Made by a program: the position numbers and the translations under genes
Part shown: piece after piece, positions 11,601-40,400 of the stretch
How the letters are laid out: every line of letters begins with the position of its first letter
Position numbering within the stretch: the first letter of the stretch is position 1
NCBI GenBank assembly: GCA_038257655.1
Contig: JBBSJC010000003.1
Location: forward strand, 1 to 40,641
Length of the DNA stretch: 40,641 nt
From: Polyangiales bacterium
GTDB taxonomy: Bacteria > Myxococcota_A > Polyangia > Polyangiales > DASUME01
Direction of reading: 5' to 3'
The notes under the pieces: generated by a model
The model's input: only the letters and a program-made list of their open reading frames with translations
Told to the model about the DNA's origin: nothing
The model's database searches: none

Positions 11601-14600
11601 CTCAGGATCGCCAAAGCGTAAGGCCTCGAGGGCCGACTCGCGCAGGCTGCTCGCTTGGTCGGAGTCGCCGCGCGTCAGGGCAAGCTCGCTGAGCTCCAAC
11701 AGCACTTCGCTTACGCCGAGCGTGCGGCCGGTTGCGAGCACGATGGGTGTGCGCTTCGCTGCCAACAATAGCGACCGTAAGGCCCGTTCGCGGCGCGCTA
11801 GATCACCAGCCTCGGCCGCGCGTTCGGACAGGGCATACATGATCGCCACATCCGCCGACCGCATGTTGAGCGCAAGCTCGAGCTGGGCGCACGACTCTGA
11901 CAGGTCGCCTTCATCGCGCAGGATGTCGGCCAGCTTGACGTGCACGGCCGCGCGTTCGGAGGAGCGACGACGACCGAATTGCGCGAGCAGATACATCAGT
12001 ACCTGGCGCGCCTCATCGAAGCGACCGAGCGCGCGCAAGCCATCGGCCATGATGCCGCACAGCTCCGCGTCATCCGGCTGCAAACCGAGCGCAAGGTCGG
12101 CCACGGCCACCAACGCTTCCGGGTTTTCGAGCGTCGAGTGGTACAGACGCGCGGATTCGATCGCAAGCGTGGCACTTTCGGCGCGGTCTTGGGTTTCGCC
12201 CGCTGCGCGTGCCAAGACACCGGCCAGCTCCGCGTAGCGCTCACCCGCGCGCAGCTGCTCCGTGAGCAAAGTGCGCACCGCCAAATCAGCGGGAGCCTCG
12301 GCAAACGCGGTGTGTAAGGTTTCCAGGGCGGCCTCAACCTGCTGGGCGGCAAGCTGCGCCTGTGCAAGCTCGTGCAGCACGCGGGGTCGCTCGGTGGCGT
12401 CGGTCAGCGTCAGTCGGCGCGCAAGCCAGCGCGCGCTGCCCGCCTGATCCTCGAGTGCGCGACAGAGCCGTACCAGCTCATCTAACACCTGGGCATCGTC
12501 GCTGAGTGCTGCGACTTGCTCAAGCGCGTAGATCGCCTGCTCGCGATCCTGAAGCTTCTCTTCAGACAGCTCCGCGGCCTCTTGCCAGAGCGTGATCGCC
12601 AGCGCATCTTGTCCCGCTTCTGCCACTGCGCGGGCCTGTTTCGCCAGCAAGCTAAAGAGCTCGGGCAAACGATGCTTTTCGGTCAGCAGGGCGCACGCCG
12701 CCTCGAGCGAGTCGTGATGACCCGCATGCTCTTCGAGGTTGCCGAGCAGCATCACAAGGCGGGCGTCACGCTCTTCGAGCAAACCGGTCAACCTGACGAT
12801 CTCGAGACGTAAGGTTAGACGCGCTTCTACTGAGTCCGAAAGCGCAAGCTCGCGTTTGCGTAGCGCAAGCTGCTCCGGCACTCGTTCAAGACGCTGCGCA
12901 AGCGTCGCAAGCCAGCTTACGAGCTCCCGATCCCGCGGCTCTTGCGGCAGCACCGAAAGGCCGACGTGCAGCGCCTCGCTGAGCTGCCCTTCCTGTTCGA
13001 GAATGCGCGCGCTCTGTCGGCGTAAGCCTGCGCGTTGCGCCTCCGACAACGGAAGTCGCACTGCATCATCAAGCAAGTACAGGGCACGCGCTGCTTGCTT
13101 TGCGGCAAGCTCGAGCGGCACCAGTCGCTCCACCGCCCACAACACCCAGCGCTCGAAGTCGCCGCTTACCCCCTCGCGTGTCCACAGGTCCGCAGCGCGT
13201 CGGTAGAGGCGTGCCAGCGTCGCACGTTGATGGGCGGCATCGACGTTGAGTTCAATCAGCAGCTGCGCTGCCTCGATCAATGGCGCGAGCGTGTCGGGTG
13301 ACTGAGCATCCAGCGTGAGTAAGGTTTCAAAGAGTGCCTGGGTCGGTGCCAGTCGCTGAACTGCGGCGAGCATACTCAAGGCCTGGGCGCTGTTCGGTTG
13401 CAGCTTGAGTGCGCGCTGGGCCGCAACTTCTGCGCCGGGGGCGTCCGCGCACTGCTCAAGGCGCCAGCTTGCAAGTTGTAACGAAAGCTCGCAGTGCAGC
13501 GCCGGGGCCAGATCACTGCGGCTGCGCAGCGCCAGCGCAAACGCCTCGCACAGGCTGGGAAAAGCGCTCGCCGCCGTGGCTGCTGAAGCCAGACTCTCGA
13601 GCACCACCGGCTCGAGCCGCGAGCGCACGGCGCACGAGTGGAGCGCTGTGTCGCAGGCGAGGCGATAGGATCCCGCGAGCGCCGCACAGCGTACGAGCGC
13701 GTGCGCCTCGTAGGGTGCGAGTGGATGGACCGCGAGCACGACCTCGTAGGCCTCGGCTGCGCGTTTATAGTCGTTCAGGCGTTCGAACAAGCGACCAGCG
13801 GCCGCCGAAAGATCGGCTGCGCGAGGCCGATCAAAAGAAGCTGCTAGGGCAGCCCAGTGCAGCGCGCTTGCCGCTTCGCGCAAGTGTCCGGTGAGCTCCG
13901 CCAAGCGCAGCAACTCGCGCTGGGCGTGAACGTCTGCAGGCGCGCGAGGAAGCGCCTTGGCCACCAGCGTCAGGGCATGGCTGGGATCTGCGGCGCGCTG
14001 CTCCCACAGCTGCGCAACCTCGAACATACACAAAGCTTGCTGGGTCGGGTCGTCCGTCGCTGCCAAGCGCGCATCGAGCAGATCGATCCGCAGCTGCCAG
14101 TCGTCGGTTGCGATATAGGCCTGGGACAAGGCGCTTGTGACCTCTTGCGCGCAGCCCTTGATGCCCAGCAGCGCAGACAAACCGGAGCGCGCAGCGGCGC
14201 AGCCAGGCTCGAGCTCGAGGGCACGCCCATAGGCGCGCGCGGCCGCACCGTGATCTTCGAGCTCCAGCCGATGCACGTCGCCCAGTCGGCACAGGCGCGC
14301 CACCGATAACGTGCGCTCGCGGTCGGTCGCGCCTTCGAAGATGCGCGCGAGCTCGCAAAAGCGTTTGCTCTCGGTCATCAGCTCATCGAGCGCTTGCAAT
14401 AGATCCGGCTCGTCGCCGAACTCCTCGCGTACAGACAACCAGGTGTCGATGGCGGCGTCGAGATCGCGCAGCGCCGTCGCTTGCAGCGTCGCCACACGCG
14501 TGCGGTCTTGTCTGCGTTGCCGGGGCGTGGGTGCCACCTCGGCACGCTTCTGGAGCTGTGTAACTTCGAGGTCGTGGCGGCCCAGCTGTGCCGCGAGCTC

Positions 14601-16154
14601 GATCGATGCGCTGAGCGCTTCGAGGTCCGCGGCGTCATAGGCAAGCCACGTCTGCCATGCACCTAGGGCGCGCTCTAGATCGCCCGTCTCGTGCGCATGC
14701 TGCGCGATTTCGGAGAGCAGCAAACGCCGCCGATAGGGGCTCGCTTCGCCTTGCGCCAAGCGGTCGAGCACTGCGAGCTGCTCGATCGTGCGCCCAGTCC
14801 CGCGCAACAGACGCTCGAGCTGCCCGGCGGCTTCGCGCAGCTGGGCAGGCTGGGCATTCGCCAACGTGAGCACGCGCTGTCCGAGCGCGATCGCGGCATC
14901 GCGCTGAGCAAGGGGTTCGGCATGCACAGCCATCGCCGCGATCAGGAGCTGCGCTACCTGAGTATGATCCGCGGCAGCCTCGGCTGCGGACACCAGGGCT
15001 TCAGCGTGCGCGGCATGCTCTCCGCTCCGCTCAGCCAGGCGCTCTAGCTGCAGGCGCGCGTCGCCATCGCTCGGCTCAGCGCGCAACGCCTCGGCGTAGT
15101 GCGCCATCGCTGGGCGATCCTCAAAACGCGCCATCAAGCGCGCCGCGAGCTCCCGGCGCAGTCCAAGTTGCGTTGTATCGGGCGCAAAGCTCAACGAACG
15201 CTCAAGCGCCGCGATGGTCGCAAGCGGGCGGTCGGCGCTGTCGTGGTGCAAACGCAACAGTTGCAAGCTCGACAACCGCAGCGCGACGTCCGCTTCGGGC
15301 AGTGCGAGCACTCGCTCGAGCAACGCGCAGGCTTGATCGTCGCCGGGACGTCGTTCGAGCACGCCCGCAGCCTCGTGCAGCGCCTCTGCAGGCGCGGAGA
15401 GGTGATCGAGGTAGACGCGCGCGATGCGCAGGCGCAGCTCGCTTACCAGGCTTTCGGGCGTCGCCTCGAGCTGGGCTTGCCACAGTCCAATCAGCGGCTG
15501 CCATGCCTTTCGTTCAGACAACACGCGTTCGAGCGACGCACACAGCGCATGGGCGCTAGGGTCGAGCCTCAGCAGCTCACGCAGGTACTCGATCGCGCGC
15601 TCGGGGCGATCGGTGAAGTCTTTGGCGACGTGGGCTGCATCATCGAGCAGTTGCCGCCTGCGTGCGGGCGCAAGCCTGCCCAATAGCGCGCGGTCGTAGG
15701 CCTCGAGCAGGCTATCCCAGTGCTGGCCATCGGTGAGCTCACTCACGAGTTGATCAAACGCCCAGCCCGCATCCGGGCAGGTTTCGATCACGTGATCGAG
15801 CACGCGGCGCATCGCGGCTTCGTCATCGCCATACCAGCTGTCGTAGAAGCGAACCGCGCGCCGCCCTAGCTCCTCGCGCAGTGTGTCGGGCCGGGCAGGC
15901 GTCAACATCCTCAGGTATGCATCGGCCACCGGATCGGGCCTCTGCAGCGCCTCGCACAACAGCTCGAGTGTATCCCAGGCGCCAAAGTCTTCGGGCGCGT
16001 CCCGCACGGAGCGCAAGACGCCCACGAACTCGGCCTCGGTCTGCTGGGTTGGCTGCGCACGCAATCGCACCTGACTTGGCGCCGCGTACTGGCCGCTTGG
16101 CGGATGATCTTCGTAGGGGCCGGTGGCATCAGGACGTGCACGGGACTGGGTCAT
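8694..16154 (-). CDS. Giant tetratricopeptide-repeat protein (myxobacterial AgmK-like TPR solenoid), about 2486 aa
   Basis: One long ORF of Ala/Leu/Glu/Arg-rich helical repeats (e.g. AIEYLRELLRLDPS, YGRALELEPG, ARKALEAAPDS). Start placed at ATG 16154 based on the AAGGTGAGG SD and a sigma54 promoter just upstream. No signal peptide or TM seen. Confidence 0.85.
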   Translation of the reverse strand: MTQSRARPDATGPYEDHPPSGQYAAPSQVRLRAQPTQQTEAEFVGVLRSVRDAPEDFGAWDTLELLCEALQRPDPVADAYLRMLTPARPDTLREELGRRAVRFYDSWYGDDEAAMRRVLDHVIETCPDAGWAFDQLVSELTDGQHWDSLLEAYDRALLGRLAPARRRQLLDDAAHVAKDFTDRPERAIEYLRELLRLDPSAHALCASLERVLSERKAWQPLIGLWQAQLEATPESLVSELRLRIARVYLDHLSAPAEALHEAAGVLERRPGDDQACALLERVLALPEADVALRLSSLQLLRLHHDSADRPLATIAALERSLSFAPDTTQLGLRRELAARLMARFEDRPAMAHYAEALRAEPSDGDARLQLERLAERSGEHAAHAEALVSAAEAAADHTQVAQLLIAAMAVHAEPLAQRDAAIALGQRVLTLANAQPAQLREAAGQLERLLRGTGRTIEQLAVLDRLAQGEASPYRRRLLLSEIAQHAHETGDLERALGAWQTWLAYDAADLEALSASIELAAQLGRHDLEVTQLQKRAEVAPTPRQRRQDRTRVATLQATALRDLDAAIDTWLSVREEFGDEPDLLQALDELMTESKRFCELARIFEGATDRERTLSVARLCRLGDVHRLELEDHGAAARAYGRALELEPGCAAARSGLSALLGIKGCAQEVTSALSQAYIATDDWQLRIDLLDARLAATDDPTQQALCMFEVAQLWEQRAADPSHALTLVAKALPRAPADVHAQRELLRLAELTGHLREAASALHWAALAASFDRPRAADLSAAAGRLFERLNDYKRAAEAYEVVLAVHPLAPYEAHALVRCAALAGSYRLACDTALHSCAVRSRLEPVVLESLASAATAASAFPSLCEAFALALRSRSDLAPALHCELSLQLASWRLEQCADAPGAEVAAQRALKLQPNSAQALSMLAAVQRLAPTQALFETLLTLDAQSPDTLAPLIEAAQLLIELNVDAAHQRATLARLYRRAADLWTREGVSGDFERWVLWAVERLVPLELAAKQAARALYLLDDAVRLPLSEAQRAGLRRQSARILEQEGQLSEALHVGLSVLPQEPRDRELVSWLATLAQRLERVPEQLALRKRELALSDSVEARLTLRLEIVRLTGLLEERDARLVMLLGNLEEHAGHHDSLEAACALLTEKHRLPELFSLLAKQARAVAEAGQDALAITLWQEAAELSEEKLQDREQAIYALEQVAALSDDAQVLDELVRLCRALEDQAGSARWLARRLTLTDATERPRVLHELAQAQLAAQQVEAALETLHTAFAEAPADLAVRTLLTEQLRAGERYAELAGVLARAAGETQDRAESATLAIESARLYHSTLENPEALVAVADLALGLQPDDAELCGIMADGLRALGRFDEARQVLMYLLAQFGRRRSSERAAVHVKLADILRDEGDLSESCAQLELALNMRSADVAIMYALSERAAEAGDLARRERALRSLLLAAKRTPIVLATGRTLGVSEVLLELSELALTRGDSDQASSLRESALEALRFGDPECERIKQSLRERGTPELLEQIVRQELAHAVSHPERALAMNALADLLQLRPQTRDESIELRLAAIELDPSDPRLHDAAQTACTPDCLPRFRALLERLRERARRPSDRYARCEVCLRLGALYFAEDNIDGAQTLFSEAEATHVRESDVWRAQLRVAVAREAVQAQTTLLSKLDGLGGAELPNEERVDVLYRLAEVRLAAEDTRNEGLARMRDALAEAPRPMRAARVLLNALSEQAADSELLALFADVARDCSEPQLLQVSALCAEEGNAAALGILLERADAAGSSPELRAALLVKRACLLLTNDATDQEAGELLCKAVALRPDDIEAENRLISYFQESAAWDRLLDHLALRFEQTCADGAVDACVRYALALHLHVEEGAREAQAVRALRQALMLAPHHDEVRSALLVRLAADEHAHERAEVLEQMLAHRPIADGAELSIEAASLYETCGDVVAALRVLRTAHERAPQHAGIVLMLTEILRRQDDAQALAELLAESARNEGDVSSRVRTLREAAQLQRARLDDHGTAATLLLEAVEALPDDSSLRKELALDLFTLGRMDEASGHLAHAAAHCDDDEERASLLHLRGKTLLQQSKLEAGLADLQAAFALAATSLGSDLLQTLEDARLLALEAQDEAAERDLTFRMASMRRSLGDLPEAAQLIETWLGRGTASDEGLSMLSELYTELSWSSDLARILATRLCHVTDELRTDLAQQLTQLIPQLDDVAEVRAALTLAHGMQPESLEIEETLISALTAVSDDLSIAELLMKRAPRLPEAEARTRCMSRAVQHFLDAGAATEATEVLQQLHSAAPGDIDIGIALADALIGQQRLAEARTLLETLVDPSAEGHSMPRARLLLRLSQVARAQGDNETALNTMQAARDTDTSNRAILVQLAVLAEELEAWSVAENALTSVLLLKGPEIMPRGEALLRRARVAIHHSGAKRALLWARKALEAAPDSEEAALLIAQLEGQIA

Positions 16155-16185
16155 CGGGAGCCTCACCTTCGCGAGGCTGCCTACC

Positions 16186-16200
16186 GCAATGGCCATGCCA
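16186..16200 (-). promoter_or_regulatory. Sigma54 (-24/-12) promoter for the giant TPR gene
   Basis: Minus strand TGGCATG-GCCA-TTGC versus consensus TGGCAYR-N4-TTGC, with exact GG-N10-GC spacing. The predicted TSS near 16174 lies just before the SD and ATG 16154. Confidence 0.75.
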
Positions 16201-16265
16201 TCCCAATTTCGCATCCCTTCGTGAGCATTCACGCGGAGAATCCGACATGGGACCCTGATGCACTG

Positions 16266-17267: not shown

Positions 17268-18149
17268 CTAGCTTATGCGCTGCTGACGTTGCGTGCTCGT
17301 CCCGTTAGACGCATTTGCAGACGCTGACATGCCGCGATGTAGCAGCGCGGGCGGCGCGATACCGTGCTCACGAAACGCGGTGAGCACGCGCTCGGTGACA
17401 TCGGTCTGAAAGGCGCTTTCGTACTTCACATCGAGAACGTAGGCCTTGGCGCGCAGACGCGTGGCGAAGTAGCTCTCGTGTACAAGCTGGCTTACCCAGA
17501 CCACCCACGGCTTCTTACTGTACACGTAGCGACAGCTGGTCACGGCTTCGGAGACGAGTTGTTTGGCGAGCGCGAAGTCTTGGTCTGCGCCGATGTAGAA
17601 GTCCATCTGGATCAGCATATCGAGCGCGCCCCAGTTACCCGAAGACACCATGTCGGTGAGGAACTTGTTATTCGGGATGGTGACCACGTTGTCGTCGAGG
17701 GTCACAAGACGAACGGAGCGCAGTCCGATCGCCGTGATCTCACCGTATGCCCCCTCGAAGCTGACGCGGTCACCTACCTGAAACGGACGATCGACGATGA
17801 TGATAATGCCCGCCAGGATCGACGCGGCCAAGTCTTTGAGGGCAAAGCCGATGGTGACCGCGGCGGTGCCCGTGATCGCGAGCAGCACCTCGCGCGACAA
17901 ACGCACCGACACGCTGACCGCGAGTAAGATCCCGCCGATATACAATGCAAATCGCAGCAGCGTCGCGACCTGCGCCAGTTGCAAGCGTCGCTCCGGGATG
18001 CGCTTGCCCACGCGCTGCAACGTGCCGGTCGAGAAACTCACGATGAACCAGGTCACGAGCAACACGACCACGCCCGCTGCGACACCGGAAACCTGAATCG
18101 CATCGAAGATGCTTGCGCCGCCGCCGGCGTTTGCTTGGCTGGGATCCAT
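17268..18149 (-). CDS. mscS: Small-conductance mechanosensitive channel, minimal 3-TM MscS family
   Basis: IGFALKDLAASILAGIIIIVDRPFQVGDRVSFEGAYGEITAIGLRSVRLVTLDDNVVTIPN; AAGGAG RBS; 21 bp downstream of the NTPase gene. Confidence 0.92.
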   Translation of the reverse strand: MDPSQANAGGGASIFDAIQVSGVAAGVVVLLVTWFIVSFSTGTLQRVGKRIPERRLQLAQVATLLRFALYIGGILLAVSVSVRLSREVLLAITGTAAVTIGFALKDLAASILAGIIIIVDRPFQVGDRVSFEGAYGEITAIGLRSVRLVTLDDNVVTIPNNKFLTDMVSSGNWGALDMLIQMDFYIGADQDFALAKQLVSEAVTSCRYVYSKKPWVVWVSQLVHESYFATRLRAKAYVLDVKYESAFQTDVTERVLTAFREHGIAPPALLHRGMSASANASNGTSTQRQQRIS

Positions 18150-30283: not shown

Positions 30284-31162
30284 GTGAGGCCCGTGACAAG
30301 AACCATCAGTATCAAACGTCTTTTCCGCCAAACCCTGCCCACCTCCGCATGGAGATGGCCCCTGTGGGCTGCGCTGAGCGGCTGCGCGGCGCTTGCTCCC
30401 GATGCCCTTGAGCTCGGCTCAGCCTCTTCCGGTGAGAGACAGACCGACGGCGCGCGACCTGACGACGGCGGGGCCGAGAAGCCCGCGGAGGGCGGTCAAA
30501 GTATCGCGCCCGATGGCGGTGATGTTGGCGCACCTGACGCTGCGCCGGGCGACGGCGGTCCCGTGGCAGAGCCCGTGGTGACGATCGTGGTCGAAGCCGA
30601 GAGTTATGACGTGATCGACCCCAATATGACCGCGCGCAGCTTCTATCCCACGGCCAAAGGCATAGGCGGGCCCTCGCCCGATCCGGATGGCTCTCACGCG
30701 GGTACTGCCAGCGGCGCCAAGTATCTCGAGGTGCTGCCGGACACGCGCGTGACAGGCACAGACCCGTTCGACGACGCCGTCTTCGAAGAGGCGGGCACGG
30801 GACCTATCGTCTCGTACTTCATCTCGTTCCCTGTGCCAGGCACGTACTACCTGTGGGTGCGCGGCTTCTCCACGGGCACCGAAGACGAGACCGTGCACGT
30901 GGGCCTTGATCGCGATTGGCTGACGAGCGTCATCGCCAAGCTGTGCTCCGACGGACAGGGCTGGCAGTGGGCTTCCCACGAGCGCGTGGATAAGTTTAGT
31001 TGCGGCAACATCGGGGAGCTTAGGCTCGAGGTGCCGAGCGCCGGGCTCCACACCGTAAGCTTCGCCGCGCGCGAAGACGGCTTTGAGCTCGATAAGTGGT
31101 TACTCACCACCGACGCTACCTTCGTCCCGCGCGACAAAGGGCCCGAAGAGACGCCGCGCTGA
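30284..31162 (+). CDS. Lipoprotein with a galactose-binding-like / CBM-type beta-sandwich domain
   Basis: ALSG-C lipobox; DGG-rich linker; IVVEAESY, PGTYYLWVRG, DETVHVGLD, GLHTVSFAAREDGFELDKWLLTTD. Start uncertain. Confidence 0.72.
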   Translation: MRPVTRTISIKRLFRQTLPTSAWRWPLWAALSGCAALAPDALELGSASSGERQTDGARPDDGGAEKPAEGGQSIAPDGGDVGAPDAAPGDGGPVAEPVVTIVVEAESYDVIDPNMTARSFYPTAKGIGGPSPDPDGSHAGTASGAKYLEVLPDTRVTGTDPFDDAVFEEAGTGPIVSYFISFPVPGTYYLWVRGFSTGTEDETVHVGLDRDWLTSVIAKLCSDGQGWQWASHERVDKFSCGNIGELRLEVPSAGLHTVSFAAREDGFELDKWLLTTDATFVPRDKGPEETPR

Positions 31163-31238: not shown

Positions 31239-31268
31239 GTGAGCCATTCCGAAGGCACTGAGGGGACT
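31239..31268 (+). promoter_or_regulatory. Candidate ECF sigma promoter, copy 1 (DUF1592-DUF1552 operon)
   Basis: GTGAGCC (31239-31245) -N16- GGGGACT (31262-31268), followed by the GAGGAGG SD and GTG 31297. Confidence 0.75.
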
Positions 31269-31296
31269 CGTCCTTCGTAACCCTGAGGAGGACGCT

Positions 31297-33024
31297 GTGT
31301 CACCAGTTCTGCGCTCGAGCGTGTTGTGTTTGCTGCCGGTGCTGATCTCGTGCACCGCGCTTATCGACTCGTCTCCAAAAGGTCCAGTTGAGTCCGGCGA
31401 GGCGGACGGCCCCGGACGGCCCGGCGACTTAGACCCGTCCGAAACAGACCCCGGCGGCACGGGAACCCCGGACGACGTGATCGCTGCCTCCGAGTGCGGG
31501 CAGATGAGTCGCAGCACCGCCGCCAGAAGGCTCAACCGCGACGAGATTGGCAACGCGTTGTTCGACGTGCTCGGTGTCGACGCGAGTAAGGTCAAAGGGG
31601 CTTTGCCTCCCGACGGTACGATCGGAGGTTTTGCCACCGTGGGCGAACAGCTCAGCTCGGGCGATCTGTTTACAACCCAATACCTCGAGCTTGCCGAGCA
31701 GGTCGCTGACGACCTGGTGCGTAACAGTCAGGTCGGCAAAGCCTGCGGTGCAAGCCCTACCCTCTCCTGCTTGGAGGACGCGCTGTCCTCGCTCGCGCGC
31801 AGACTCTACCGAGGCGCTTCGAGCGAGGAGACCGCCACGCTGAGACAAGTCCTCGCTCGCGCCTTTACCGAGCTCGGAGCCGCCGACGCGTTGCGCGTAG
31901 CCCTGACGACGCTGATGACCTCACCGCGCTTTCTGTTCGTCTTGCCGGAACCTGCCGAGGACAAGACCCGTTCGCTGACGGCGCGTGAGCTTGCCTCTCG
32001 CCTATCTCTTACCCTCTGGCAGTCCGTGCCCGATGACGCCTTGCTCGATGCGGCCGAAAGCGGCGACTTGCTGCAAGGGACAGAGTTCGACGCCCAGATC
32101 GAACGCATGATGGACGATCCCAAGTTCTCGCGTTTTCGTAACGAGTTCTTTGCGCAGACCCTGACTCTTTCACGCTTGGATAATAGTTCGATCGAACCGG
32201 ACGCCTTCGGTCTGAGTGAAGACGAGCTGCGGGTGTTGCTGGCCGACATGCGACAGGAAACGGGACGCTTTATCGATTCCGTCTGGGACGATTCCGCACC
32301 GGTCGACACCTTACTTTCAGGCGCCTATACTTTCGTCAACGAGCGACTGGCGCGTCACTACGGCTTGCCCAGTGTCGCCGGGCAGGAGCTGGTGCGGGTC
32401 GAGCTCGATCCGGCCACGGGACGTCGTGGCTTGTTGACCCAGGGCGCGCTGCTCGCTCAGGCAGCCTCTGGTGATCGTGCCTCGATCGTCATGCGAGGCG
32501 ACTTGGTGATGGCGGGTTTGCTCTGCCAACCGCCACCTCCGCCGCCGGCCTCGTTAGAAGAAGTCATTCAAGATCTCACCGCATCGGGTGCGACCGAACG
32601 CGAAAAGATGTCGATTCGCGCCGCGGACCCCGTGTGCGCGGGCTGCCATCGCAGTCTTGACCCGATCGGTTGGGGATTAACAGCGATGGACCCCCTAGGG
32701 AGGCCCGCCACGGCCGATCCCGACGGGGGTAAGCTCGACCCGACAGGTGTTCTCGATGACACCGCCTACAACGGAGCAGTCGAGCTATCAAAGATCTTAG
32801 TGCTTCGCGATCGCATCACCCCCTGCTTAGTCGAGAAGCTACTGATCTATTCGGTGGGCCGAGCATTCGACCCCGTCGCACGCGATGAGGATGGCTGCCT
32901 GATCAGCGCGGTCGTCGCAGACGCTCGCAAGGGCGGTGCGGAAACTCTGAAGCAACTTGTGCTTTCGGTCATGCGTAGTGTCGCCTTTCGGGCGCAGGGA
33001 ACTGGCGAGGAGCAAGGGTCATGA
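31297..33024 (+). CDS. DUF1587/1595/1592/1588/1585 (PSD/PSCyt3) lipoprotein with a c-type heme motif
   Basis: LIS-C lipobox; RRLNRDEIGN, LMTSPRFLF, ELASRLSLTLWQSVPDDALLDAA, TFVNERLARHYGL, RRGLLTQG, CQPPPPPP, CAGCH...DPIG. Confidence 0.92.
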   Translation: MSPVLRSSVLCLLPVLISCTALIDSSPKGPVESGEADGPGRPGDLDPSETDPGGTGTPDDVIAASECGQMSRSTAARRLNRDEIGNALFDVLGVDASKVKGALPPDGTIGGFATVGEQLSSGDLFTTQYLELAEQVADDLVRNSQVGKACGASPTLSCLEDALSSLARRLYRGASSEETATLRQVLARAFTELGAADALRVALTTLMTSPRFLFVLPEPAEDKTRSLTARELASRLSLTLWQSVPDDALLDAAESGDLLQGTEFDAQIERMMDDPKFSRFRNEFFAQTLTLSRLDNSSIEPDAFGLSEDELRVLLADMRQETGRFIDSVWDDSAPVDTLLSGAYTFVNERLARHYGLPSVAGQELVRVELDPATGRRGLLTQGALLAQAASGDRASIVMRGDLVMAGLLCQPPPPPPASLEEVIQDLTASGATEREKMSIRAADPVCAGCHRSLDPIGWGLTAMDPLGRPATADPDGGKLDPTGVLDDTAYNGAVELSKILVLRDRITPCLVEKLLIYSVGRAFDPVARDEDGCLISAVVADARKGGAETLKQLVLSVMRSVAFRAQGTGEEQGS

Positions 33025-34406
33025 AACGAATTAACTCGAAGCAAAGTAGCTCGAACGGCATGTCCCGTCGCACGCTGTTGCGCGGTGTTTCCCTAGGCGC
33101 GGTCACGGCGCTTTCGCTTCCACCCCTGGAGGTCATGTTTGGCAGCGACAGCGCCTACGCCCAAGCGACCTCCAACCGTGCGCGCTTTGTCGGCGTGTAC
33201 ACGCCCAATGGCACGATCCAAGAGCGCTGGTGTCCAAAGCCGGCGGCCACAACGGTGACGCGGACCTTTTCCCTTGCTGGCACCGCCCTTGCGCCCCTTG
33301 AGCGGCATAAGGCGAACCTGAGTGTGTTCCGAAATGCACAGAATGCCGGCAGCAATGGAAACGGCAACGCTCACATGAAGGCCATCGCGGGCTTTCTCAC
33401 CGGGCGGGCCATTCCCAACGATACGGTAGGCACCCATCAGGTCTCCATCGATCAGTTCGTGACCAATGCGGCGGCGCAGAAAGCCGGCATCGGCTCGCTG
33501 CAATTGGCCGGCAACAACGAGCTCGATCCACCGAACAACACCCGGTACAACAACTCGCTCAAAAACGCGCTCAGCTTCGATGCCCAAGGGCGCATTCTGC
33601 CCAACACGGCCAACCTGCGTGCGGTCTTCGATCGCGTGTTCAAGGGCGTGTCGCCGGTGGCGGGTCCAGGCGCGGATGCCGCGGCACAACGTCGCGCGCT
33701 CATGCGCAACAGCGTGTTGGACGCGGTCGCGGCCGACAGAGCGGCGCTGAGCACCAAGCTCGGGCAGCAAGATAGGGTAAGGGTCGATGAGTACTTTGAG
33801 AGCTTGCGCGCACTCGAGCTCGATATCGATGCCCTTGCACCGCAGTGCACCATCCCTAGTAGCAATGACTTCCCACAGACTCAGGACGGTCCACGGCTGA
33901 ACGCGATCGGCAATCACGGAAAGCTTGCGGGCAGACTTATCGCCCTCGCCTTTGTCTGCGACCTGGTGCAAAGCGCGACTTATATGATGGGCGGCGAGGG
34001 CACGGGCTGTGGGTACTCCGAGCTCAACATCAACCAACACTTCCACAACACCATTTCCCACAACCGCGCTGCCAAAGCGGATTTGCATCATCGCATCGAT
34101 ACCTTCCATTCCGATTTGGTGGCCTCCCTGCTCGATGCGCTCGAAGACACGAGCTACGCCACTGGAACCTTACTCGATGGCACGGCCGTCTTGTACGGCG
34201 CGGGCCTGGGCAACGCCGACAGTCATTCGCTCTCAAACATCGGGCTCGTGCTCGCCGGGCGCTTTGGTAAGGTGCGGCAGGGCGCTTTTCATACGGACCT
34301 CAAGAATCAGAATCACGCTAAGATCCTGCGCACGATCGTAGCGGAGCTGGGGCTTGATGCCGACGCGTTTTTGCCGGGCAGTGTGGGCACGCTCGATCTT
34401 ACGTAG
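33021..34406 (+). CDS. DUF1552 (HXXSHH-family) Tat-exported protein
   Basis: Tat motif SRRTLLRG; LSLPPLEVM; YTPNG; SIDQ; FDRVF; SVLDAV; KLGQQDRVRVDEYFESLRALE; GTLLDGT; HSLSN. ATGA overlap with the DUF1592 gene. Confidence 0.92.
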   Translation: MKRINSKQSSSNGMSRRTLLRGVSLGAVTALSLPPLEVMFGSDSAYAQATSNRARFVGVYTPNGTIQERWCPKPAATTVTRTFSLAGTALAPLERHKANLSVFRNAQNAGSNGNGNAHMKAIAGFLTGRAIPNDTVGTHQVSIDQFVTNAAAQKAGIGSLQLAGNNELDPPNNTRYNNSLKNALSFDAQGRILPNTANLRAVFDRVFKGVSPVAGPGADAAAQRRALMRNSVLDAVAADRAALSTKLGQQDRVRVDEYFESLRALELDIDALAPQCTIPSSNDFPQTQDGPRLNAIGNHGKLAGRLIALAFVCDLVQSATYMMGGEGTGCGYSELNINQHFHNTISHNRAAKADLHHRIDTFHSDLVASLLDALEDTSYATGTLLDGTAVLYGAGLGNADSHSLSNIGLVLAGRFGKVRQGAFHTDLKNQNHAKILRTIVAELGLDADAFLPGSVGTLDLT

Positions 34407-34433
34407 GTCCAGGGCTGCGAAGGCGGAGAGCGC

Positions 34434-34562
34434 TTACCAGCAGCCTTGGGTCAGAAGGGATGGCGCCCATGCTGGTCCGCGTGGGTTGATTTCGCGCGAG
34501 CCCCCCGGCACGAGCGCCATCAGGCAGACCACACCGTGAGCCATCAGGGAGAAGCGGTGCAT
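34434..34562 (-). CDS. Possible 42-aa leaderless small ORF or decayed signal-peptide remnant
   Basis: MHRFSLMAHGVVCLMALVPGGSREINPRGPAWAPSLLTQGCW*; the ATG lies 9 nt after the -10 box of promoter copy 2; the N-terminus is signal-peptide-like. Confidence 0.35.
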   Translation of the reverse strand: MHRFSLMAHGVVCLMALVPGGSREINPRGPAWAPSLLTQGCW

Positions 34563-34571
34563 GTAGGGAGT

Positions 34572-34600
34572 AGTCCCCGCGGCGCAAGAAAACGGCTCAC
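34572..34600 (-). promoter_or_regulatory. Candidate ECF sigma promoter, copy 2 (minus strand)
   Basis: Minus strand GTGAGCC (34600-34594) -N15- GGGGACT (34578-34572), then ACTCCCTAC-ATG. Confidence 0.65.
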
Positions 34601-34690
34601 GGAGCTTTTTGCTGAACGCGGCGAGCGCGGGAGACAGCACGAATCGTCGACGCGAGGAGCACGTGCTCTTATAGTGAGCTCATCGCACCG

Positions 34691-35713
34691 ATGCGCCGCC
34701 GCCCGCTTCTATCCGCGCTCCAGCTCCTATGGTTCGCCGGATTCGCATGGCTATCCATGGGTACGTGCTGGGGCCCAAGCCCGGTGCGTGCGTCGGATGT
34801 GCGCGTGCTGGTGGTGGCGCGCGATGAAGTCTGCGCGTCGCTTGCACGGCGTACCCAGGCAGAGGCGCGGGCCGCCGACTTCGTAGTCAGTGACGCGCCG
34901 CCGCAGATCGTCGCGGATGCCGAGACCGACTTATTGGTCGCCTTGATGGAACAGAGCGCAGTCCAGGCGCTGGTGTTGCTGTCTAACTGTGCTCGAGCGA
35001 CCGAGATAAGCGTGCTCGTCATCGACCCTGTGAGCGGCCGTGATCACTTTCGACGCATGGATCGCCGCGGCACCGGTGAGGAGGCGCGTGTCGCGCTGCA
35101 GGCCGTGGAGGTACTGCGTGCGGCGTGGCTTGAAACGGGCATTGCACAGCCGAGTCAGCCCAGCGCGGCGCCAAGCCAGCCGGCCCTTCCCACGAGCTCG
35201 TCGGGAGCTGAGGCGCTCCCCTCCGCGACGCTTTCAGTTGCGAGCGGCGTCACCTATTCACCGGGTGGCGTGTTTGCCACTTGGAAGGTCGCGACCGGTC
35301 TTGAGCTGTATTCCCGCGACTGGCTGGGCGTTGCCCTCGATGCCGCGGGGACACCCTGGCCGGCTCGCGTGCGCGGAGATCGCAGCCTGACGCTCCGGCA
35401 TGCCTCGCTATCCCTAGGGCCGGTGCTGCGCTTTGCGCCCTCCCCGCGCGCCCGTGTATGGGTTACTCCGGCGCTGGGTGGCGCGCTGATGTGGGGCGCT
35501 CTGGGCCGCGATGCGGCAGCGAGCTGGGCGCCGATCGTCGCCCTACGCGTGGGCGCCGGCTACGCGCTGACTCGAAGCCTTACGTTGCGTGCCAACGTAG
35601 CCGCGCAAAGCTTCTCCTCTCCGCTGCGTATCGAAGTCGACGGCGACAGCGCAGCGCGTTTCGGCGTACCCGTGCTGGATGCAACCCTCGGCTTCGATCT
35701 GGCCCTTCGGTAA
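34691..35713 (+). CDS. Exported protein with an N-terminal alpha/beta domain, Pro/Ser linker and C-terminal outer-membrane beta-barrel-like domain
   Basis: Signal-like N-terminus; VALQAVEVLRA helix; QPSQPSAAPSQP linker; amphipathic strands (LRVGAGYAL, VLDATLGFDL); upstream of the ECF sigma / FecR pair. Confidence 0.65.
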   Translation: MRRRPLLSALQLLWFAGFAWLSMGTCWGPSPVRASDVRVLVVARDEVCASLARRTQAEARAADFVVSDAPPQIVADAETDLLVALMEQSAVQALVLLSNCARATEISVLVIDPVSGRDHFRRMDRRGTGEEARVALQAVEVLRAAWLETGIAQPSQPSAAPSQPALPTSSSGAEALPSATLSVASGVTYSPGGVFATWKVATGLELYSRDWLGVALDAAGTPWPARVRGDRSLTLRHASLSLGPVLRFAPSPRARVWVTPALGGALMWGALGRDAAASWAPIVALRVGAGYALTRSLTLRANVAAQSFSSPLRIEVDGDSAARFGVPVLDATLGFDLALR

Positions 35714-35740
35714 CCGAGCGCACAGACTACCGTCCTCGCT

Positions 35741-35770
35741 GTGAGCCTTTTCTGCCCGGGCTGGGGGACT
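35741..35770 (+). promoter_or_regulatory. Candidate ECF sigma promoter, copy 3 (autoregulatory, probably leaderless transcript)
   Basis: GTGAGCC (35741-35747) -N16- GGGGACT (35764-35770), 7 nt before the sigma ATG at 35778, leaving no room for an SD. Confidence 0.78.
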
Positions 35771-35777
35771 ACCCTGC

Positions 35778-36443
35778 ATGATGGTAGGTGTGCTGGGTCG
35801 AAGACCGGAACTGGTCGCTTCGGAAATCTCCGAGCGCAGGCCCGCTGCCTCGTGGCATGGGTCGAGCGACGCGGAGCTTATCGCCGGCGTCATCGCAAGG
35901 GACGACGCCGCCACCGCACGCCTGTACGACCGCTTTGCGGGCTTGATCAATCACGTGATCTTGCGTGTGCTCGGTGGCGATGCCGATCACGACGATTTGG
36001 TGCACGACGTGTTCCTCAAGCTGTGGCACGCCGTTGCCGCGGGCCGCGTGCAGAACCCGGACAGCCTTCAGGCCTATGCCGCAAGCATCGCGACCAACGT
36101 GGTCTACAAGGAGCTGCGCAAAAGGTATGTGAGGCGACGTTTCTTTGGACGAGAAGAACGAGCTCCCGAGATGACCTCCCGGGTGGAAGATCACGAGGCG
36201 CGCGAAGTGCTGACCTTAGTCTATGCCATTGCCTCCGAGTTTGGTCCCCAGGACCGCCTGCTCTTTACGCTGCGGCACCTCGGGCAGTACAAACTGGCGG
36301 AGGTTGCCAAGCTAGCGGACTGCTCTCTAGCCACGGTCAAGCGCCGACTCGCCAAGGCTGAGGCCCAGTTTGTGTTGCGCGCCCAGGACTACCCTGAGTA
36401 CCCACGTCTCGCGGCTCTGATAGAAGAGGGAGGGGCCCCATGA
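35778..36443 (+). CDS. ECF-type RNA polymerase sigma-70 factor
   Basis: Region 2: SDAELIA...LYDRF...DHDDLVHDVFL...IATNVVYKELRKR; region 4: QDRLLFTLRHLGQYKLAEVAKLADCSLATVKRRLAKA. Confidence 0.94.
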   Translation: MMVGVLGRRPELVASEISERRPAASWHGSSDAELIAGVIARDDAATARLYDRFAGLINHVILRVLGGDADHDDLVHDVFLKLWHAVAAGRVQNPDSLQAYAASIATNVVYKELRKRYVRRRFFGREERAPEMTSRVEDHEAREVLTLVYAIASEFGPQDRLLFTLRHLGQYKLAEVAKLADCSLATVKRRLAKAEAQFVLRAQDYPEYPRLAALIEEGGAP

Positions 36444-37639
36444 ATCGTCCTACGAACATCCTTGAGGATGCCCTGGAGGCGCTGGACGCAAACCTCGACG
36501 CGCCGCGACGAGACGCACAAAAGCGCAGACTGCGTGCCGCGATTCCTGTACGCCGCGCTTCGATCCTGGCGTGGAGTGGTTTCGCTGCAGCCGCGACTGC
36601 CGCAGTGCTCGCGGGCTTTGTCCTGCTCGAAGGCACTCCCGGCGTAGAAAGCAAGGTTGCCGTCTCCACTCCTGTTGTTGCTGTCGCTCCTGTCAGGGGC
36701 ATCGCGCGGCAACCGAGCGAGCAGGAACCTGCCAAGCCGCCAAGCGAGGATGCCTTGCCTGGCACTCCGTCGCTGCGGCACGTGTCGCTCGGTCGCGGAG
36801 TGGTCATGGCACTGGGTGAGCACGCCAAAGCGCGTGGCCGCCGCGTCGGTCCGCGAAGGTACCAGGTGCAGCTCGAGGAAGGTATGGTCGAGCTTGGCGA
36901 TCAACCCATGCCCACGCGCACGGTGACGCGAGCAGCCTGGGTCGTGCTGGCAGGCGAGTACCGCGTGAACGCCCAGGATGCGGTGTTTAGCGTCAGCTAC
37001 GAAGCCGCTTCGCGAGCCGTGCACGTGCAAGTTTCCAAGGGACAGGTGCTCGTCTCGGGTCCTTACGCACCCCCGCAGAAAATCAGCGCAGGTCAAGAGC
37101 TGCACGCGTCTAAGACACTCAGATCTGCAAGCAACCGCAAACAGGCACAGCGTGACCCCGCTGCACCCAGCCCGGAAAGCCAGGATTGGCATGCGTTGTA
37201 TCAAGCGGGGCGCTACGGCGATGCTCTGACTCTCGCACGGCGTAGTGGGCTGACCGCTTCACTGGGCGCGGGGCTCAGCGCGGGCGACCTGACGGATCTT
37301 GCCCACGCCGCACGACTTGCGCGTGCTTCGAGCGAAGCACAAACGCTATTGCAGGCTCTTAGGACGCGCTATCCCGATGCCCGTGGCGCACGGGATGCCG
37401 CCTTTCTATTGGGGCGCCTGGCGAGCGACCGCGGCTCTGCAGCGGAGGCGCAGTCCTGGTTCACGACCTATCTGCGCGAGAGCCCGTCCGGAGCTTACGC
37501 GCAAGAGTCCCTGGGCCGCTTACTTACGCTTGCCTCCCAAGGGTCAGACTCGGCGCGCGCAAGAGACCTCGCGAATCGCTATCTGAGTAAGTTCCCCGGT
37601 GGCCCCTACGCCGTGCTCGCTCGAACCCTGACGCACTAA
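36440..37639 (+). CDS. FecR-like transmembrane anti-sigma factor with C-terminal TPR domain
   Basis: ATGA overlap with the sigma gene; short N-terminal domain; TM (WSGFAAAATAAVLAGFVLL); FecR-like strands (VQLEEGMV, AVFSVS, VHVQVSKGQVLV, ISAGQ); TPRs (LRTRYPDARGARDAAFLLGRL, YLSKFPGGPYA). Confidence 0.85.
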   Translation: MNRPTNILEDALEALDANLDAPRRDAQKRRLRAAIPVRRASILAWSGFAAAATAAVLAGFVLLEGTPGVESKVAVSTPVVAVAPVRGIARQPSEQEPAKPPSEDALPGTPSLRHVSLGRGVVMALGEHAKARGRRVGPRRYQVQLEEGMVELGDQPMPTRTVTRAAWVVLAGEYRVNAQDAVFSVSYEAASRAVHVQVSKGQVLVSGPYAPPQKISAGQELHASKTLRSASNRKQAQRDPAAPSPESQDWHALYQAGRYGDALTLARRSGLTASLGAGLSAGDLTDLAHAARLARASSEAQTLLQALRTRYPDARGARDAAFLLGRLASDRGSAAEAQSWFTTYLRESPSGAYAQESLGRLLTLASQGSDSARARDLANRYLSKFPGGPYAVLARTLTH

Positions 37640-37657: not shown

Positions 37658-38761
37658 TTACTCGCTGCCGAGCCAGCGCGCCTTGATCCGGTCCAGGCCG
37701 TCGCGCTCGGCAAGCTCGAGCAGGGCCACGTTGAGCCGAGCCACATCGTCGGAGGCGTGCTTCTGCATCGCAAATCCGTAGCCCAAGGGATCATACTCTT
37801 TATCCGAGAGTGATATTTCCTGTTCGGGGTGTTGATTTAGGTAATACGCGAGCACGGGTCGGTCCCACACGACTGCGCTTACCTTCTCCTGTTGAAGCGC
37901 CAGCACCGCGTCGGCAAGCGAGCTCACTGCGACAAGCCGACCTCCGAACTCTTTGACGAAGGTGGCAGCGGGCGACCCCTTCGGAGCGGCCACTCTGAGG
38001 TCTGCCAAATCTCGCACCCTAGTCACGGACGGGGTCTCAATCTGCGATAGCGTCAACGCGGTGGCGATCGATGCCGTCAAGGACGACGCCGTGATCATGG
38101 CAAGCACCATCCAGACTCCCGCCACAAAGCGGCCGGCCATCGAGAGCGGCGCGCGATCGCCATACCCCACCGTGGTCATCGTCACCAAGGCCAGCCAGAT
38201 TCCGTTCCCGATGCCACGTGCTGGGTCAGCGGGAAACTGCGCGCTGTTCTGCTTGCGTTCGCACAACCAAAGCAAGACGCCCACCGCACCGAGCACCACT
38301 AACAGGAAGCTGACTCCGACCAGAAATGTCTTACTCATGAACGGTCGCATGCGATCCCAGTAAGACACGGCCGCAGGTGCTAAGAGGGATAGCGTCGACT
38401 GATGAAAAGGCTGCGTGAAGGCCACCCGACGTGCCCGCTTGGCCGTGATGCTTACCGGGCCGACCACCAGATCTGCCTGATCGGCTTCGAGCGCCGCAAT
38501 CGCGTCGTCCACCGAGTCATACCGCGCGTAAGTCCAGCGTGGCGCGAGCGACGCCCCGACAGCCCGCCAGACATCGATCGCAAGTCCGACGGGTTCTCCG
38601 CCACGGTCGATAACGAAGGGTGCACTGCCCGCGACCGCGACGCGCAAAGACGCAGGAGCCTCCTTTGCCGCACCCGCATCAGCGCCGTCAGCGCGCGTCG
38701 AGATCGGGCATAACAACAGCAGCGCGCTGGCTGCTGCGCAGGCGAGCCATACGTCCCTCAT
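37658..38761 (-). CDS. GluR0-like ligand-gated K+ channel (periplasmic binding domain split by an inverted K+ pore), 367 aa
   Basis: Signal peptide; S1 (APFV, GLAIDVW, GPVSITAKRARRVAFTQPF); M1; pore WLALVTMTTVGYGD; M2 with SSLTASIATAL; S2 (WDRPVL, YGFAM). Confidence 0.92.
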   Translation of the reverse strand: MRDVWLACAAASALLLLCPISTRADGADAGAAKEAPASLRVAVAGSAPFVIDRGGEPVGLAIDVWRAVGASLAPRWTYARYDSVDDAIAALEADQADLVVGPVSITAKRARRVAFTQPFHQSTLSLLAPAAVSYWDRMRPFMSKTFLVGVSFLLVVLGAVGVLLWLCERKQNSAQFPADPARGIGNGIWLALVTMTTVGYGDRAPLSMAGRFVAGVWMVLAMITASSLTASIATALTLSQIETPSVTRVRDLADLRVAAPKGSPAATFVKEFGGRLVAVSSLADAVLALQQEKVSAVVWDRPVLAYYLNQHPEQEISLSDKEYDPLGYGFAMQKHASDDVARLNVALLELAERDGLDRIKARWLGSE

Positions 38762-38814
38762 AATGCCCACCTTGCCACGGCTTTGCGTCCCAACGCGAGC
38801 ATCCTGCGCCTGCG

Positions 38815-40083
38815 TCAAGCGCGTGCTGCAAGCGCCACCCGAATGTCAGAGCCACTGGGCGCTTGAAATACGCGCAGACCGAACTCCGGCACGATCGCGA
38901 GCAGGTGATCGAAAATATCGGCCTGGATTGCCTCGTAGTTGGCCCAGACGATGTCGTTTGCGAAGCAGTAGAGCTCGATCGCGATGCCGCCTTCGTCAGG
39001 CGGTAACTGACGTACGATAAGCGTCCGATCACTGTAGATCTTCGGATTTGCGCGCAGGTAGGCATGCACGTACGCGCGAAACGTACCGAGGTTTGTCAGC
39101 CTTCGTCCGTTGACGACCTCATCGACTTCGATCTGCTGCTCCCGGTTGTAGCGCTCCACATCTTGCCGCTGAGTCGCGAGATAGGGGCGCAAAAGCTGAA
39201 TACGGTCGTAGCGCGTTAGATCCTCGGGCGTGCAGAAGCGCACGGAAGTCATGTCGATCTTCAGCGCACGCATAATGCGTCTACCGCCTGACTCCTGCAT
39301 GCCCCGCCAGTTGCGAAAGGAGTCGCTGATCAGCGAGTAAGCGGGGATGGTCGAGATCGTCTTGTCGAAGTTCTGCACCTTGATCGTCGTCAGCGCGATA
39401 TCTATCACGTCGCCGTTGGCGCCGTACTTTGGCACTTCGATCCAATCGCCCTTGCGCACCATGTCTTGGGCGCTGAGCTGCACGGAGGCGACAAGCCCCA
39501 GGATCGCGTCCTTGAACACCAAAATCAACACGGCGCTCAGTGCGCCAAGACCACTTAGTAACACGACCGGAGAGCGTCCGATGATGGTTGCGATCAGTAA
39601 GATCGCAGCGATCACGTAGGCGACGATCCGAACCACCTGCATGTAGCTCTTGATCGGCGTGAAACGTGCGGCATTCATGCCGTCGTAAACGTCGGTCACC
39701 GCGTACAAGAAGCCGTCGACGGCGCGCACCGTGACGATACCCATATAGAGGAGCGCAGCGCGCTGGGATAGCTCGAGCAGCCCCTCCGAACGTGCGAACA
39801 CGACCGGTGCAGTCAAGAACAGGATCATGCCGGGCACCAGCTGCGAGAGCCTGTCGAACACATGGTTATCGATTAGCTTGTCGTCCCAGCCAGTCTGGGT
39901 GCGTCGCACAAAGGCGTTTACCGCACGGATGATGAAGTGCTTGGCGAAGTAATTCGCGATCAGCGCGAGCAGAATCACGGCAAAGAACATCACAGCGACC
40001 GCCGCAAGCTCCCTATCATCTGCAGGCACGCCCCAGGTCGCAACTAGCTTCTCGATACGATGGTGCAGCTCGGGTGTCTTCAT
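38815..40083 (-). CDS. ybdG: YbdG-type (miniconductance) MscS-family mechanosensitive channel, 422 aa
   Basis: SGLGALSAVLILVFKDAILGLVASVQLSAQDMVRKGDWIEVPKYGANGDVIDIALTTIKVQNFDKTISTIP, SFRNWRGMQESGGRRI, RRLTNLGTFRAY, YEAIQADIFDHL, FGLRVFQAPSG. Confidence 0.92.
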   Translation of the reverse strand: MKTPELHHRIEKLVATWGVPADDRELAAVAVMFFAVILLALIANYFAKHFIIRAVNAFVRRTQTGWDDKLIDNHVFDRLSQLVPGMILFLTAPVVFARSEGLLELSQRAALLYMGIVTVRAVDGFLYAVTDVYDGMNAARFTPIKSYMQVVRIVAYVIAAILLIATIIGRSPVVLLSGLGALSAVLILVFKDAILGLVASVQLSAQDMVRKGDWIEVPKYGANGDVIDIALTTIKVQNFDKTISTIPAYSLISDSFRNWRGMQESGGRRIMRALKIDMTSVRFCTPEDLTRYDRIQLLRPYLATQRQDVERYNREQQIEVDEVVNGRRLTNLGTFRAYVHAYLRANPKIYSDRTLIVRQLPPDEGGIAIELYCFANDIVWANYEAIQADIFDHLLAIVPEFGLRVFQAPSGSDIRVALAARA

Positions 40084-40400
40084 GGACCAATCATCACAGC
40101 TAAAGGTACAGGAGAAGACCCCACTGTAGCGCCTCAGCGCGAGCGCGCATGCCCGGCGCTTCAAACACTCAGGTCGCGAGCGACACATAGTAAGGCTGAC
40201 GAAAGTGCGACCGAGTCATCCCGCGCACGATGCGTAAGGTGGAGCAGCAACAGGATGACCGCCTTGCGCTCATGAGCGGGGCTACGCCGGTCGCAGAAGC
40301 GCACACAACGACCCTGTCTATCGAGCTGCTCGAAGGCCGGTTGCAAGCCGTGTAGATGTGAGCCGCCCTCGACTGCCCCTCCCTGATACGACCTTCGGTA

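Follow-up and report, generated by a model that had tools for sequence, protein, structure and literature searches.

A bipartite motif in a Polyangiales genome is the probable promoter of an extracytoplasmic function sigma factor

Locus organisation

The DNA analysed here is a stretch of 40,641 nt (hereafter, the window), which is the entire contig C3 of a Polyangiales genome assembly of 8,210,685 bases. The window contains a gene for a sigma factor of the extracytoplasmic function (ECF) type, followed by the gene for a probable anti-sigma factor, and an operon encoding a DUF1592-type protein and a DUF1552 protein. Upstream of the sigma gene and of the DUF operon, and once more on the opposite strand between them, the same pair of short boxes occurs, GTGAGCC and GGGGACT (sites 1–3; Table 1). 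Our analyses suggest that this motif is very probably the promoter recognised by the product of the ECF sigma gene at 35778–36443. In the following, G000 denotes the window's own genome, G009 is a relative in the same genus that carries a sigma ortholog of 75% identity, and labels beginning with C are contigs of G000.

Table 1. Features of the window and motif sites on other contigs of the same genome. Positions refer to the window unless a contig is named.
Feature	Position	Strand	Description
Gene for 292-aa protein	30284–31162		Upstream of site 1; no family named; codon-usage gene model
Site 1	31239–31268	+	GTGAGCC-N16-GGGGACT, exact; upstream of the DUF1592–DUF1552 operon
DUF1592-type protein	31297–33024	+	PSD3-PSD5-PSD4-PSCyt3-PSD2 (Pfam)
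DUF1552 (HXXSHH) protein	33021–34406	+	Pfam, E 1.3e-59
42-codon ORF	34434–34562	−	Starts 9 nt after site 2
Site 2	34572–34600	−	GTGAGCC-N15-GGGGACT, exact; faces away from the sigma operon
Sigma-70-like promoter of the 340-aa protein gene	34647–34675	+	TCGACG-N17-TATAGT; scan, 9 of 12 matches
Gene for 340-aa protein	34691–35713	+	No known family; directly upstream of the sigma gene
Site 3	35741–35770	+	GTGAGCC-N16-GGGGACT, exact; upstream of the ECF sigma gene
ECF sigma factor gene	35778–36443	+	Identified with Pfam and NCBIfam
Probable anti-sigma factor gene	36440–37639	+	399 aa; short cytoplasmic N-terminus, one hydrophobic span, FecR and TPR domains
C155 site	C155:11562–11590		Before the gene for a 346-aa F5/8-type-C protein, then a copper-monooxygenase-like/cytochrome c protein
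C511 site	C511:3445–3474	−	Before a second ECF sigma gene (212 aa), then a PL14-domain gene; one mismatch to the 14-mer
C22 site	Contig end		Core GTGAGCC/GGGACT

Occurrence and geometry of the motif

An earlier note on this DNA had described three intergenic copies of the motif, with differing spacers and each directed at a start codon. A search of the window for GTGAGCC-N12–20-GGGGACT with both boxes exact recovered these three copies just as described in position, strand and spacer, and no copy was obtained in any of 100 dinucleotide-preserving shuffles. Gene calls from a codon-usage model placed all three between genes. The spacers and flanks were unlike between the copies, yet site 2 and the C155 site both contain GGGGACTACTCCC. 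From the end of the motif to the next start codon, the distance was 28 nt at site 1 (GTG 31297), 9 nt at site 2 (ATG 34562 of a 42-codon open reading frame, ORF) and 7 nt at site 3 (ATG 35778 of the sigma gene). Thus, all three copies do point at start codons, although the small ORF behind site 2 has a negative coding score.

Across G000, GTGAGCC occurred 1446 times and GGGGACT 376 times, and from these counts approximately 0.07 bipartite pairs per genome would be expected by chance. The genome-wide scan that the note had recommended returned only four exact pairs in 8.2 Mb, two with a spacer of 15 nt and two with a spacer of 16 nt (spacers of 8–25 nt tried), whereas the reversed box order had no match in the whole 8,210,685-base assembly. 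The fourth exact copy is the site on contig C155. Exact matches of the 13-base core GTGAGCC/GGGACT fell only at spacers of 16 (two), 17 (three) and 20 nt (two) among the 10–24 nt tried, and GTGAGCC-N16/17-GGGACT was found at six sites in G000, including one at the extreme end of contig C22, compared with two matches for the backwards control. Matches with one mismatch numbered 8 and 11 at the motif spacers and 2–13 at other spacers. One such match (GGGGGCT; C30, locus L003, 9305–9333, minus strand) is located 6 nt upstream of the ATG that would open a putative 74-aa ORF, which belongs to no family and was not called by the gene model.

Sigma factor, probable anti-sigma factor and upstream gene

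The predicted sigma factor has Sigma70_r2 (E 9.2e-13), Sigma70_r4_2 (E 4.3e-7) and Sigma70_ECF (E 2.3e-7) domains in Pfam and scores 79.2 bits on the NCBIfam model TIGR02937 (cut-off 42.9), which assigns it to the ECF (group 4) sigma-70 factors. By profile, the closest solved relative of its family is Escherichia coli sigma-E (E 1e-23).

The start of the gene for the 399-aa protein overlaps the sigma stop by 4 nt. Domain matches in the window copy were weak (FecR, E 0.0095; TPR_16, E 0.0014); among aligned family members, FecR was present in 16 of 16 and TPR_16 in 12 of 16. Of 19 distant loci, 16 have a homolog of this protein no more than 10 kb from the sigma gene. In 15 of them, the homolog's gene directly follows the sigma gene on the same strand, and its start usually overlaps the sigma stop. 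A model of the complex of the sigma factor with residues 1–66 of the protein scored 0.87, compared with 0.01 for the best control; 58 of 80 solved complexes attained that mark, as did 2 of 110 mismatched pairs. The runs shared at least 79% of contacts, with a partner pLDDT of at least 64, and residues 6–35 of the partner contacted sigma-2 (46–83) and sigma-4 (132–170) in the model. These features suggest that the FecR/TPR protein is the probable anti-sigma factor.

The 340-aa protein encoded directly upstream is kept in this position in G009 (52% identity). In the Atlas it falls among hypothetical-protein clusters of Myxococcota at 0.98, and a match to outer-membrane beta-barrels at 0.89 is a lead only. 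The GAATCGTCGACG...TATAGT block of its sigma-70-like promoter is kept before the G009 gene as well (L028, intergenic 12828–12988), whereas the rest of the intergenic sequence has diverged. No terminator-like site was found between the 340-aa protein gene and the sigma gene, and the sigma-70-like promoter is a possible source of basal read-through into the latter.

Convergent with the sigma operon, window positions 37658–40188 (minus strand) encode a prokaryotic glutamate-receptor-like channel (SBP_bac_3 and Lig_chan, 386 aa) and an MscS-type channel (457 aa), the gene for the former lying downstream of the latter with a 4-nt overlap. A second MscS-like gene is located at 17268–18149.

Conservation of the promoter among sigma homologs

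Related genomes are not independent of each other, and the comparative results below are consistent support rather than a statistical test. Next to the G009 ortholog, the best match to the window sigma among 61 genomes had 41% identity, and a species-level genome collection likewise held one close relative (75%), the rest being distant ECF sigma factors at 21%–39%. Upstream of the sigma genes, the window and G009 have CGTCC.CGC.GTGAGCCTTTTC and GGGACT.CC.CTGCATGATG in common, but the 12-nt core of the spacer differs; the G009 gene also keeps the ATGATG start.

A wider survey covered 24 sigma-homolog loci with 30%–75% identity, of which 22 lie in 12 other genomes and the remaining two are the window locus and a paralog in G000. 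Inspection of the regions upstream of homologous sigma genes, also recommended in the earlier note, recovered a family form of the motif, TGAGCC-N19/20-ACT. In 18 of the 24 loci this form stood directly upstream of the sigma frame when one mismatch was allowed, and it was exact in 13. At the two family spacers, this loose pattern had only 103 matches on both strands of G000 (16.4 Mb), and its intergenic matches there numbered 18 and 19, compared with 5–14 at 15 other spacers.

When sigma loci were compared with each other, the variant of the −10 box was found to match among the promoters of one locus. In G018, a genome from another family of the order, GACACT occurred three times, upstream of the sigma gene, of a lipoprotein gene that diverges from it and of a DUF1592 gene. 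Locus L109 of G004 had GGACACT twice, locus L098 had GCCACT twice in a back-to-back arrangement, and GGGACT sites numbered three in the window and four in G009. An alignment of sigma-2 and sigma-4 was examined for a residue that would separate GGGACT from CACT promoters, and none was obvious. The distribution of the motif also followed that of the sigma factor. GTGAGCC-N15–17-GGGACT had six matches in G000 and three in G009, whereas the eight genus genomes without a close sigma ortholog (completeness 72%–99%; 0–3 matches per genome for a backwards control pattern) had one, one and six times zero. The proposal that the motif is the promoter of the sigma gene at 35778 is thus supported by boxes that are kept in the ortholog while the spacer has diverged, by 18 of the 24 homologs and by the scarcity of the motif where the ortholog is missing.

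Position of the sigma start codon

At site 3, the TGA within GTGAGCC is an in-frame stop that closes the sigma frame, which opens 11 codons before ATG 35778. Therefore, this ATG is the first possible start and lies only 7 nt after the −10 box. The start of the G009 ortholog lies 8 nt after its −10 box, and 14 of the 18 family promoters have the first start codon of the frame 5–13 nt after ACT. In several secondary targets of the family, a signal peptide begins at an ATG 7–11 nt after ACT, which pins the start codon of those genes. Further, approximately 145 nt have been duplicated in G009 to a position before a gene for a 653-aa DUF4874/DUF4832 protein (L028:9513–9656 vs. L028:13845–13988). 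Included in the duplicated segment are the 3′ end of the 340-aa protein gene, the promoter of the sigma gene and the five bases with which that gene begins, ATGAT, and the homology stops exactly there; it looks as if a promoter had been captured along with the start codon behind it.

A leaderless sigma mRNA, as the earlier note had envisaged, is plausible from this geometry. The lack of a terminator-like site after the 340-aa protein gene means that a leadered read-through mRNA may coexist with the leaderless form.

DUF1592/DUF1552 operon

The N-terminus of the DUF1592-type protein looks like a lipoprotein signal with a lipobox, and the twin-arginine-like SRRTLL at the N-terminus of the DUF1552 protein suggests a Tat signal. 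Since the start of the DUF1552 gene overlaps the DUF1592 stop by 4 nt, the two genes form one operon. The GTG at 31297 is preceded by a Shine-Dalgarno-like GAGGAGGA. Site 1 is predicted to be an ECF-type promoter with a start at approximately 31275–31277 and a leader of approximately 20 nt that would carry GAGGAGGA.

The link between the sigma factor and such pairs, proposed from the window, recurs elsewhere. In G009, TTGAGCCATTC...GGGACTCG (TTGAGCC...GGGACT) lies 8 nt before an in-frame ATG of a sigma-adjacent DUF1592 gene. Relative to the window pair, the G009 pair flanks the sigma operon on the opposite side and is inverted, and the two pairs are not orthologous: in G000, the G009 pair has its best matches on contigs C521 and C38, and the window copy is outside the top eight. 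In G018, the −10 variant of that locus stands before a gene for a PSD3-PSD5-PSD4-PSCyt3-PSD2 protein, which is followed by a DUF1552 gene. Hence, a locus-specific motif precedes DUF1592/DUF1552 pairs in three genomes, and the link recurs with different paralogs.

The link is not general. Only 2 of the 19 DUF1592 paralogs of G000 have the family motif. Among the one-mismatch sites, C132:8839–8867 (GCGACT) is notable for lying approximately 170 nt before a DUF1592 paralog other than that of the window. A DUF pair was found within 10 kb at only 3 of 20 other sigma loci, one of which had no detected motif. In the literature searched, neither this motif nor a link from an ECF sigma factor to DUF1592/DUF1552 was found in print; the logos of ECF groups sit in figures and supplements.

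Site 2 and its small ORF

The 42-codon ORF behind site 2 had a coding log-likelihood of −0.16 per codon, compared with +0.075 to +0.167 for four neighbouring genes, and tblastn gave no other match below E 0.05 in the genome and no paralog. It is probably not a real gene. A small RNA was considered instead and rejected, as the 187 nt downstream folded no better than shuffles (z −0.29); Rfam likewise gave only a sub-threshold match to a eukaryotic snoRNA. No homology to 34407–34690 was found in G009 with blastn. Back-to-back divergent promoters with the family motif occur beside the sigma genes of loci L098, L099 and L103. Site 2 may be such a divergent promoter, the gene of which was lost in the rearrangement that separated the loci of the two species, or it may point at the DUF operon as an antisense promoter.

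Sites on other contigs and alternative explanations

The earlier note had taken the three copies as a local regulon. The three sites in the window stand, but the regulon would not be only local, with further sites on contigs C155, C511 and C22 (Table 1). The gene behind the C511 site encodes a second ECF sigma factor, which is 25% identical to the window sigma. Beyond this second sigma gene, contig C511 (locus L002, 1786–2748, minus strand) carries the gene for a 320-aa protein that has polysaccharide lyase 14 as its C-terminal domain (E 6.6e-37) and no family in its N-terminal half of approximately 150 aa; the protein could be an anti-sigma factor with a lyase-like sensor domain.

Several points weigh against the reading of the motif as the promoter recognised by the window sigma. 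The support for it is comparative, from sequence pattern, conservation and distribution. The motif is missing in 6 of the 24 sigma-homolog loci, and site 2 has neither a convincing downstream gene nor a counterpart in G009. The C511 sigma gene has the same motif with one mismatch, so that more than one sigma factor of G000 could be the reader. The excess of one-mismatch matches is small, and weaker members of the regulon cannot be called from it; the G000 assembly is 89% complete and is divided into 847 contigs. With regard to the leaderless mRNA, GGGGGA, the G-run of the −10 box 7–12 nt before ATG 35778, could be a ribosome-binding site on a read-through transcript. Finally, solved sigma/anti-sigma complexes exist, and the complex score of the FecR/TPR protein may reflect likeness to those rather than binding.

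The alternative that survives best holds that the motif is a genuine ECF promoter but is read by the C511 sigma or another paralog, with the window sigma as a target only. It would fit the arrangement on C511 (3445–3474, minus strand), where a Shine-Dalgarno-like sequence and then the ATG start codon of the 212-aa sigma factor come after GTGAGCCTTTTC...CGGGACT, and the 19 matches to the window sigma in G000, several of which have TGAGCC −35 boxes. However, no near relative of the C511 sigma was found in the genus (39% at best), and its best match in G009 (37%) has the promoter GGCACT, the same as that of a G000 sigma gene on contig C23. G009 nevertheless has three exact GTGAGCC...GGGACT sites (one with off-register spacing) and the one-mismatch site before the DUF1592 gene, together with a window-type sigma. 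GGGACT sites in a genome without a close C511-type sigma favour the window sigma as the reader. In addition, the −10 variant follows the adjacent sigma across loci. We consider this alternative unlikely and favour the reading in which the window sigma recognises the motif and the C511 sigma gene is one of its targets, i.e., a cascade, with cross-recognition possible.

It is less probable still that the boxes are the binding site of a conventional repressor or activator. In principle, an operator could account for any motif conserved upstream of a gene, but the two halves do not repeat each other in direct or inverted form, the orientation toward the downstream gene is strict, the spacing takes two adjacent values only, and the motif tracks the ECF sigma family. 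Moreover, for 14 of 18 sigma genes the motif ends 5–13 nt before the first possible start codon, too close for a separate downstream promoter to fit in between. Least credible is the view that the copies are short dispersed repeats, remnants of local duplication or chance matches, since the lack of a clear target at site 2, the G009 copy that did arise by a duplication of approximately 145 nt and the GGGGACTACTCCC common to site 2 and the C155 site are outweighed by spacers and flanks that differ, shuffles that yield not even one copy and conservation limited to the two boxes across species and families. Contig C87 of G000 contains near-identical TGAGCCACTCCATG...AATATTACT at 4523–4550 and 17334–17361 (plus strand), 12.8 kb apart, with approximately 35 identical bases downstream. 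These copies of a longer sequence are a dispersed repeat and not a family promoter.

Other genes of the window

Two further genes on the minus strand are recorded here. A 1040-aa protein encoded at 2988–6110 has DUF4135 (E 6e-116) and LANC_like (E 1.7e-56) domains, an architecture that we take to be that of a class II lanthipeptide synthetase. The 2512-aa protein encoded at 8694–16232 has only scattered TPR repeats as recognisable domains.

Proposed mechanism

The scheme that follows is inferred with regard to sigma dependence, transcription starts, the lack of a leader on the sigma mRNA, the inducing signal and the role of the FecR/TPR protein as anti-sigma factor, the last being supported only by the complex model. 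GTGAGCC and GGGACT, 16–17 nt apart, would act as the −35 and −10 elements. Basal sigma would arise by read-through from the sigma-70-like promoter of the 340-aa protein gene and would be held inactive by the N-terminal residues (approximately 35) of the membrane FecR/TPR protein until an envelope signal frees it. RNA polymerase bearing the sigma factor would then initiate approximately 7 nt after GGGACT. At the sigma gene, the start would be the A of ATG 35778, giving a leaderless mRNA and positive feedback. At 31239, the operon for the DUF1592 lipoprotein and the DUF1552 protein would be driven, with a leader of approximately 20 nt that includes a ribosome-binding site, and at least three unlinked sites (C155, C511 and C22) would also respond. 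Site 2 (34572) would be a promoter-like orphan, and any output from it would run antisense toward the 3′ end of the DUF1552 gene.

More tentatively, the family might use a portable “promoter plus ATG” cassette, as in the G009 copy before the DUF4874/DUF4832 gene, and might repeatedly recruit non-orthologous PSCyt3/PSD-DUF1552 pairs; we regard this extension as doubtful. If true, induction of the sigma factor would provide the first experimental handle on the abundant, uncharacterised PSCyt3/PSD-DUF1552 envelope pairs, and the inward-facing site 2 could add sigma-dependent antisense control of the DUF operon. On the main reading, a so far anonymous pair of sigma and anti-sigma factors from an uncultured myxobacterium of soil becomes a circuit that can be tested, for which a promoter is defined, at least five target sites are candidates and a tie to DUF1592 (PSCyt3/PSD)/DUF1552 pairs is proposed. 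A sigma factor with the unusual and apparently specific box pair GTGAGCC/GGGACT could also serve as an orthogonal expression part.

Comparison with known systems

ECF sigma factors usually autoregulate, and their target promoters are group-specific, according to a survey of the family (Casas-Pastor et al. 2021; PMC7826278). As a kind of system, an autoregulated ECF sigma factor is already textbook. The window system resembles E. coli sigma-E (RpoE)/RseA in having a sigma factor with sigma-2 and sigma-4, a bipartite promoter before its own gene and a co-transcribed single-pass membrane partner, which the complex model here predicts to clamp sigma-2 and sigma-4. The boxes of sigma-E are GGAACTT/TCAAA. 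In the window, by contrast, the boxes are GTGAGCC/GGGACT, the partner has FecR and TPR domains and the sigma gene is apparently leaderless.

The group ECF267 is described in Casas-Pastor et al. [quoted passage not shown] Compared by these described traits rather than by group models or a logo, the window system is alike in the FecR (16 of 16) and TPR_16 (12 of 16) domains of the partner family and in that the best solved relative of the sigma is an ECF02 member. The kinase hallmark sets it apart: none of the 120 Pkinase matches of G000 lies on the window contig (40.6 kb), and only 5 of 19 distant loci and neither of two close loci had a kinase at a distance of up to 10 kb, approximately the chance rate in genomes with at least 120 kinases. 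The motif may already be predicted at the level of the ECF267 group.

As in FecI/FecR/FecA, an ECF sigma gene is followed by a gene for a single-pass protein with a FecR domain. The window sigma, however, scores only 38.1 bits on the FecI model (cut-off 260), its targets are not iron-uptake genes and no TonB-dependent transducer was found among the 20 window proteins scanned, a set without four ORFs at the window ends. The hrp box of HrpL (ECF32) is similar to the family consensus, with xGAxCC at −35, a C/A-rich ...CAC(T) at −10 and similar spacing. Its canonical form is GGAACC-N15/16-CCACNNA. A variant, GGAACC-N20-TCAT, appears in another report (PMC4544800). The window sigma differs in using GGGACT instead of CCAC, and HrpL is described as not autoregulated and without an anti-sigma factor in PMC7826278.

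The targets, too, have counterparts elsewhere. PSCyt3/PSD and DUF1552 pairs of Planctomycetes and Verrucomicrobia show the same domain set and the same adjoining DUF1552 gene. In He et al. (2017; PMC5615132), PSCyt3 genes are stated usually to adjoin a family of unknown genes, with nothing known of their function. The pair in the window differs in belonging to a Polyangiales lineage and in being apparently tied to a specific ECF promoter.

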